Below, piece after piece: positions 42,647 through 44,023 of a stretch of DNA of 64,000 bases. The DNA lies in NCBI RefSeq assembly GCF_003018255.1, contig NZ_CP027440.1. The stretch is one strand, 5' to 3'. The stretch is from Escherichia coli (lineage in GTDB: Bacteria > Pseudomonadota > Gammaproteobacteria > Enterobacterales > Enterobacteriaceae). Both the position numbers and the translations under genes were made by a program. The notes beneath the pieces are model-generated. The model was not told the origin of the DNA. It saw nothing but the letters and a program-made list of their open reading frames with translations, and made no database searches. Position 1 is the stretch's first letter. The number at the start of each line of letters is the position of its first letter.

Positions 42647-44023
42647 TTATCTCCGCGTCATCAGAAGAACAGTGACGGATCGCCCGCCCCGTTTGGTCAG
42701 GCGACCGTTTGCCATAATGCCCATGCTTTCCAGCCAGCGTTCAAACTCCGGTGACGGGCGCAGGTTGAGTAACTGACGCACAGTGGCGGTGTCGTGGAAG
42801 GCCGTAGTCTGGTAGTTGAGCATGATGTCATCACCCAGCGGCATCCCCATGATGTAGTTACAGCCTGCGGTGGCGAGCAGGATCATCAGGTTTTCGTTGA
42901 GGTTCTGGTCAGCGTCAGCGTGGTTGGTGTAGCAGCAGTCACAGCCCATAGAGATGCCGCTCAGCTTGCCCATAAAGTGATCTTCTAAGCCCGCGCGGAT
43001 AATCTGGCGGTCGTTGTAGAGATACTCCGGCCCAATAAAACCGACCACGGTGTTGACGATAAACGGATCGTAATGACGCGCCAGCCCATAGTTACGCGCT
43101 TCCATCGTCACCTGGTCAGCGCCGAAGTTAGCGCCAGCGGACAGCGCCGAACCTTGTCCGGTTTCGAAGTAGAGGCAGTTTTCCCCGGCGATACGGTTAA
43201 ACTCTGCACCCACTGCGCGCGCTTCGTCGAGCATCGCCAGCTCCACGCCAAACTCTTTCAGCCCTTTTTCGCTGCCGCAAATACTCTGGAAAATCAGCCC
43301 GCCCGGTGCGCCGCGACGAATCGCTTCGATCTGGGTGGTGACGTGCGCCAGTACGCAGCCCTGAGTTGGGATGTTGAATTTGTCGATCACGCCATAGATG
43401 GTATCCAACACGCGGCTTAAGTTTTCCACGTCGTCAGTCACCGGGTTAACGCCGATCACCGCATCGCCCACCCCGAAGGAAAGCCCTTCGTAGATTTGCG
43501 CGGCGATACTTTGCACATCGTCACGGGTATCGTTTGGCTGCAAGCGGGCGCTAAAGGTGCCCGGAATACCGATGGTGGTATTGGCCTTTTTGATCACCGG
43601 CATTTTCTTCGCGCCGTAGATCAGGTCCGCGTTAGAGCAAATCTTCGCTACCGCCGCTACCACTTCCGAGGTCAGCCCTTTGCGGGTAAAGGCAATGTCG
43701 TCCACGCTGGTTTCATCGCTCAGCACATACTCACGCAGTTCGCTGATGCTCCAGTTTTTAATCTGGTTGTAGGCCGTTTCGTTAACATCGTCCTGAATCA
43801 GCCGCGTCACGCAGTCATCTTCATAGGCAATCACCGGATTATTGCGGATGTCCGCTACGGTCATTTCCGACAACACCTGCTTTGCCGCCACGCGCTCCTG
43901 TGAGCTTGCCGCAGCAACGCCCGCCAGCACATCCCCCGAACGCAGTTCGTTGGCTTTAGCCAGCACCTCTTTTACATCCTTAAACTGATATACATTGCCG
44001 AACAATGTAGTCTTTAGTTTCAT
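42647..44023 (-). CDS. eutB: Ethanolamine ammonia-lyase large subunit EutB; 458-aa ORF with an aberrant C-terminal 13 residues (probable frameshift)
   Basis: ORF-track; MKLKTTLFGNVYQFKDVKEVLAKANELRSGDVLAGVAAA...; tail reads ...LTKRGGRSVTVLLMTRR where ...LTKRAGDPSLFF is expected. Confidence 0.88.
   Translation of the reverse strand: MKLKTTLFGNVYQFKDVKEVLAKANELRSGDVLAGVAAASSQERVAAKQVLSEMTVADIRNNPVIAYEDDCVTRLIQDDVNETAYNQIKNWSISELREYVLSDETSVDDIAFTRKGLTSEVVAAVAKICSNADLIYGAKKMPVIKKANTTIGIPGTFSARLQPNDTRDDVQSIAAQIYEGLSFGVGDAVIGVNPVTDDVENLSRVLDTIYGVIDKFNIPTQGCVLAHVTTQIEAIRRGAPGGLIFQSICGSEKGLKEFGVELAMLDEARAVGAEFNRIAGENCLYFETGQGSALSAGANFGADQVTMEARNYGLARHYDPFIVNTVVGFIGPEYLYNDRQIIRAGLEDHFMGKLSGISMGCDCCYTNHADADQNLNENLMILLATAGCNYIMGMPLGDDIMLNYQTTAFHDTATVRQLLNLRPSPEFERWLESMGIMANGRLTKRGGRSVTVLLMTRR

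Follow-up and report, generated by a model that had tools for sequence, protein, structure and literature searches.

A probable inherited single-base insertion that replaces the conserved C-terminus of EutB in one clone of Escherichia coli

Introduction

The eutB gene in the 64-kb stretch of Escherichia coli DNA analysed here (the window) has a reading frame that runs past its usual end and almost into eutC, and a single extra base in a short homopolymer accounts for the difference. This raises the question of whether the extra base is a sequencing or assembly error, or a real mutation that rewrites the end of a subunit of ethanolamine ammonia-lyase and, if the latter, how far the allele has spread and what it is likely to do to the enzyme.

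The eutB reading frame and the inserted base

The features of the eutB-eutC region are listed in Table 1. The initial annotation had described an open reading frame of 458 codons with its stop 6 nt from the eutC ATG (42638..42640), and both the list of open reading frames and the sequence itself agree with this description. The translation of the minus-strand frame at 42647..44023 terminates ...RLTKRGGRSVTVLLMTRR, the C-terminal end being RGGRSVTVLLMTRR and a longer form of the same stretch ...ANGRLTKRGGRSVTVLLMTRR. The letters on the plus strand at 42681..42691 are cgcccgccccg, with the C run at 42687..42690, exactly as had been read.

Table 1. Features of the eutB-eutC region of the window
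Feature	Position	Strand	Basis
eutB allele with 3' frameshift, 458 codons plus stop	42647..44023	-	list of open reading frames
G4 run holding the inserted base (CCCC on the plus strand)	42687..42690	-	gap column of alignment
Out-of-frame tail, codons 446-458, GGRSVTVLLMTRR replacing AGDPSLFF	42650..42688	-	translation compared with wild type
Ancestral eutB stop TGA, bypassed in the shifted frame	42661..42663	-	sequence
New eutB stop TAA (tta on the plus strand), 6 nt 5' of the eutC ATG	42647..42649	-	sequence
Probable eutC Shine-Dalgarno sequence GGAG, now inside the eutB frame (codons CGG AGA)	42651..42654	-	sequence
eutC (small subunit), intact, 295 aa	41753..42640	-	length equal to annotated eutC in JNE23-011 and strain C

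Deletion of one C from the run in silico gave a product of 453 aa ending KRAGDPSLFF-stop, as had been predicted, and this repaired product was identical over its full length to WP_000769961.1, the EutB of the nearest genome. Canonical EutB had been described as a protein of 453 aa with an AGDPSLFF ending, and both features were borne out by the crystallised E. coli protein (PDB 3ABO), by the orthologues and by the nearest genome. Residues 1-445 of the window EutB are identical to those of PDB 3ABO chain A, the C-terminus of which is AGDPSLFF. Alignment with EutB orthologues, which had been proposed as a check, and comparison of the translations both placed the first residue that differs from the wild type at 446, precisely at the homopolymer. 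The view that a base inserted in a G/C run had rewritten about the last 10 residues was therefore supported, with 8 residues found to be replaced by 13.

At the nucleotide level, a four-way alignment of the window with JNE23-011, JNE112863 and strain C contained a single gap column, which fell within the G run (AAAC-GGGCGGGC in the other three genomes and AAACGGGGCGGGC in the window). In all other genomes the run is G3, in the context AAA CGG GCG GGC, whereas in the window it is G4.

Occurrence of the allele

A 141-base query spanning the insertion site was compared with 5,426 complete RefSeq E. coli genomes, and the locus was matched in 5,385 of these. The insertion allele was matched exactly in none of these 5,385 genomes, and the best alignment paired 140 of the 141 positions and contained one gap. 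The eutB difference is not a matter of chance, as the window departs by a single base from every one of the locus-bearing genomes (5,385 of 5,385). In metagenome contigs, 82 exact matches were obtained with the wild-type 26-mer and none with the mutant 27-mer.

A 12-kb query retrieved two near-identical genomes, JNE23-011 and JNE112863, both from human isolates from Japan and each one base shorter than the window. In both, eutB is annotated with the normal length of 453 aa and lies 20 nt upstream of eutC. The window differs from these nearest genomes by 8 SNPs in 32 kb around the eut genes. Over the whole 64 kb, comparison with JNE23-011 gave 158 SNPs and two indels, the extra G in eutB being the sole indel in window positions 32138..64000. 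From these comparisons, the insertion allele is rare and recent, and arose once the clone had separated from the JNE strains.

The exact 458-aa protein was found, by exact-sequence look-up, on an NCBI record and in six Logan short-read run assemblies, four of which are SRR8931299, SRR13450396, ERR3653869 and SRR7947255. The DNA of the run contigs shares 99.99-100% identity with the window over 5-14 kb, the extra G included. SRR7947255 corresponds to FWSEC0057, an O185:H28 isolate with stx1a and stx2a that was recovered from river water in Canada in 2012 and sequenced by Illumina only, at 46x (PMC6787312). The initial annotation had held that close relatives with the same protein ending would speak against an inserted base. 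Proteins ending GGRSVTVLLMTRR do occur, but only in the same clone, while the nearest sisters and all other E. coli carry the canonical ending. As the altered ending is confined to one clone, the insertion is taken to be real, and its status as an insertion stands.

Proposed origin

The explanation that we prefer, and to which we assign a probability of about 0.85 as a whole, is that the allele is real and has cost EutB its conserved tail, with probable impairment of the enzyme. Replication slippage probably added a single G to the G3 run (CGGGCGGGC to CGGGGCGGGC) in a recent ancestor of one E. coli clone, which includes the Shiga-toxin-producing river-water isolate, and the extra base has been inherited since. 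The frame shifts at codon 446, exchanging AGDPSLFF for the new tail and leaving the catalytic TIM-barrel domain (residues 1-445) untouched, and the shifted frame passes the old TGA and the probable eutC ribosome-binding site before stopping just short of the eutC ATG. The likeliest outcome would be an ethanolamine ammonia-lyase, (EutB-EutC)6, that is less stable, less active or less well assembled, with a partially or completely Eut-minus phenotype. Small insertions of this type, produced by slippage in metabolic genes and then fixed within a clone, are commonplace and represent ordinary microevolution.

Conservation of the lost C-terminus and predicted effect on the enzyme

The window protein matches the Pfam EutB family (PF06751) over residues 12-444, covering positions 1-434 of the 435 in the model (E = 2.8e-206), and scores 662 bits with NCBIfam NF011649 against a curated cutoff of 554. 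As both family tests were passed, the EutB catalytic domain is whole, and the identity with 3ABO chain A over residues 1-445 means that no active-site residue can differ. The expected adjacency of eutA, eutB and eutC in an intact eut operon was also observed. The exception is the C-terminus, where proteobacterial orthologues have AGD[PA]SxFF at a total length of 453 aa and the window has GGRSVTVLLMTRR and 458 aa. The window gene is judged to be a eutB by ancestry and on all of the family tests run except that of the conserved C-terminus. It thus resembles canonical E. coli EutB (3ABO chain A; WP_000769961.1) in residues 1-445, in its position between eutA and eutC and in its Pfam and NCBIfam matches, but differs in having one additional G, a tail of 13 residues, 458 rather than 453 aa, and a stop 6 rather than 20 nt from eutC.

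Six of the lost residues (A446, G447, D448, S450, F452 and F453) are invariant in an alignment of 36 orthologues with identity down to 79%, and among the best 120 homologues nearly every orthologue with an identity of 79-97% has a length of exactly 453 aa. The motif AGD[PA]S-x-FF ends all of the approximately 110 tabulated EutB C-termini except that of the window itself, and the EutB of Listeria (PDB 2QEZ), which is only ~64% identical, retains RAGDASIF, so that the motif is largely kept. A motif held this tightly indicates purifying selection on the EutB tail. As the lost motif is invariant in the orthologues and largely kept in the Firmicute enzyme, impaired function is likely, and replacement by GGRSVTVLLMTRR would on balance be expected to harm folding, subunit assembly or activity. 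As the catalytic domain (12-444) is intact, enzyme activity may nevertheless persist in the 458-aa EutB.

AlphaFold2 monomer models were made from a shallow alignment of 36 sequences each, the first row of the wild-type alignment being an E98G variant (P0003). In these models, confidence was below 50 for the tail of both proteins, at residues 450-453 in the wild type and 448-458 in the mutant.

It is possible, though in our judgement unlikely, that the insertion is real but neutral, with the 13-residue tail tolerated and ethanolamine ammonia-lyase still working. The catalytic domain is untouched (3ABO identity through 445; Pfam 12-444), the remainder of the eut operon is intact, the allele persists in several isolates, and the tail is not confidently packed in the monomer models, all of which would be consistent with a harmless change. 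However, 6 of the 8 lost residues are invariant across the 36 orthologues, the 453-aa length is fixed in almost all of them, the motif survives in Listeria at ~64% overall identity and none of 5,385 other genomes has the allele. Conservation of the motif together with absence of the allele is the pattern expected of a deleterious or very young variant.

A search of the literature accessible to us returned nothing specific on a role for the EutB C-terminal motif or on eutB frameshifts in E. coli, and no published description of the 458-aa allele. A function of the lost tail as a microcompartment-targeting signal was considered and is disfavoured. According to a review of encapsulation peptides, EutB is without any targeting peptide (PMC4594438), and the lost tail is therefore probably not such a signal.

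If loss of the tail does impair the enzyme, members of the clone may be unable to use ethanolamine. Their genomes should be annotated as carrying either a frameshifted eutB or a variant 458-aa EutB, and the allele provides a natural probe of a strongly conserved EutB C-terminal motif.

The eutB-eutC junction

In the wild type, 20 nt separate the eutB TGA from eutC (eutB end at 2599 and eutC start at 2620 in wild-type sequence L001), and GGAG lies within this spacer. In the mutant, the frame beyond the old TGA reads CTG ATG ACG CGG AGA across the GGAG and then TAA. The GGAG lies 10 nt ahead of the ATG and is on that account probably the eutC ribosome-binding site. As the new stop is only 6 nt from the eutC ATG, terminating ribosomes would sit on the eutC initiation region, which may either raise or lower EutC synthesis.

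The remainder of the eut operon

The order of the eut genes in the window is intact (eutS...eutH-eutA-eutB-eutC-eutL-eutK-eutR), and the remaining 16 genes, from eutS to eutR, were found together with the neighbours checked to be intact open reading frames at their annotated lengths. The other eut genes were likewise intact in three of the four run contigs, over the parts of eutH to eutR that each contig covers. As the other eut genes are intact, there is no general decay of the operon that would indicate loss of function.

The exception among the run contigs is SRR13450396, in which eutH carries a perfect 19-bp tandem duplication relative to the window (CTCGCTGGTTTGAAAAACC; L010, 944..981; approximately window position 45759) that splits EutH into 304 and 98 aa. 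Like the eutB insertion, this frameshift is small and of the slippage type, and it affects the same operon in the same clone, but it is found in one isolate only and truncates the permease mid-gene, whereas the eutB change affects the tail. An additional loss of eutH in one member of the clone fits relaxed selection on the pathway, though this is a single case.

The eut operon of K-12 carries the CPZ-55 prophage insertion. This insertion is absent from the window, in which no prophage is present between eutA and eutB and the two genes are adjacent. In Shigella, the homologue list included 'EutB' proteins of 512-540 aa (P0053-P0065) with iron-alcohol-dehydrogenase Pfam domains, which are found on hundreds of contigs. 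These are apparent eutG-eutB fusions, a sign of eut operon decay. The Shigella and K-12 lesions resemble that in the window in being lineage-specific damage to a widely kept operon, but the damage in Shigella is much heavier; compared with the Shigella and K-12 lesions, that in the window is one base, at the extreme C-terminus only, with the other eut genes intact.

Possible advantage of the allele

An intact eutR in the window, and at least one Shiga-toxin-producing member of the clone, would be compatible with readings in which the allele is of benefit. Ethanolamine is a gut nutrient that confers a competitive advantage on EHEC, in which EutR-dependent activation of virulence genes does not require eutB, and EutR and EutBC compete for AdoCbl (PMC5821096). 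Loss of ethanolamine catabolism might accordingly have been selected with EutR kept intact, in which case ethanolamine and AdoCbl would be spared from EutBC and the only part left to ethanolamine would be that of a host signal controlling virulence genes. Alternatively, the AGDxSxFF tail might have an undescribed role that the allele exposes, such as one in the assembly of EutB with EutC or of the hexamer, or in reactivation by EutA. We consider it improbable that either of these proposals is correct.

A directly adaptive change is very improbable. Here, catabolism would be lost and EutR-dependent sensing kept, with less competition for AdoCbl in the Shiga-toxin-producing background, or translation of eutC would be coupled more tightly to that of eutB. 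Intactness of all other eut genes and the proximity of the new stop to the eutC ATG are compatible with such a change. However, the allele has a single origin in one small clone with no recurrence in 5,385 genomes, and EHEC eutB mutants are outcompeted in bovine intestinal content (PMC5821096). An inherited slippage insertion with probable damage to the enzyme remains the preferred explanation.

Reliability of the inserted base

The initial annotation had offered a homopolymer error and a real mutation as alternatives. Of these, the evidence from independent run assemblies favours a real mutation inherited within one clone, and disfavours an artefact. An error in the sequencing or assembly of the source genome would be in keeping with the location of the site in a G/C run and with the absence of the extra G from every other complete genome. 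A four-base run, however, is not error-prone on Illumina, and the same base was recovered in six assemblies from other read sets, at least one of them Illumina-only at 46x. Two of the runs also differ from the window elsewhere, as ERR3653869 has one SNP, at 41249, and SRR13450396 has the eutH duplication described above, so these represent separate isolates and not the same DNA re-read. An identical 458-aa protein in independent run assemblies, from at least two separate isolates, supports the reality of the extra G.

The second indel relative to JNE23-011 is a one-base difference in a T run at window position 11702, in the xapA-yfeN spacer. The window version of this T run has exact matches in at least five other complete E. 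coli genomes, and is therefore natural variation. No other private indel was detected in the 64-kb window in comparisons with JNE23-011 and the complete genomes. With two indels in 64 kb, one of them a common natural allele, the window assembly is not indel-noisy. On the strength of the six run assemblies, the separate isolates and the lack of any other private indel, assembly error was rejected as extremely improbable.

Programmed recoding was rejected as having almost no chance of being correct. Slippage of the ribosome or during transcription would here return a fraction of the product to the normal C-terminus, but a short G run is all that speaks for it, the run is only 4 nt, no slippery heptamer was seen in the junction sequence, and the mutation is private to one clone with the shifted arrangement not conserved.

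Other features of the window

The eutH-eutG spacer contains a tandem array at 46692..46976, with a 100-bp unit present in 2.8 copies at 98% match, that resembles a palindromic element of the REP/BIME type. Of the short-read contigs with the eutB allele, the four that were examined all end inside this array, at window position 46721.

Most of the 150 SNPs relative to JNE23-011 in the left half of the window lie between xapR and cysW (approximately 8900..27400). The clustering of SNPs in this segment, with only 8 in 32138..64000, suggests a recombination tract.

The hemF gene (38568..39467, plus strand) and eutR (39401..40525, minus strand) are convergent, and their 3' ends overlap by 67 bases (39401..39467). 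The same 67-base overlap is present in the annotation of the nearest genome.
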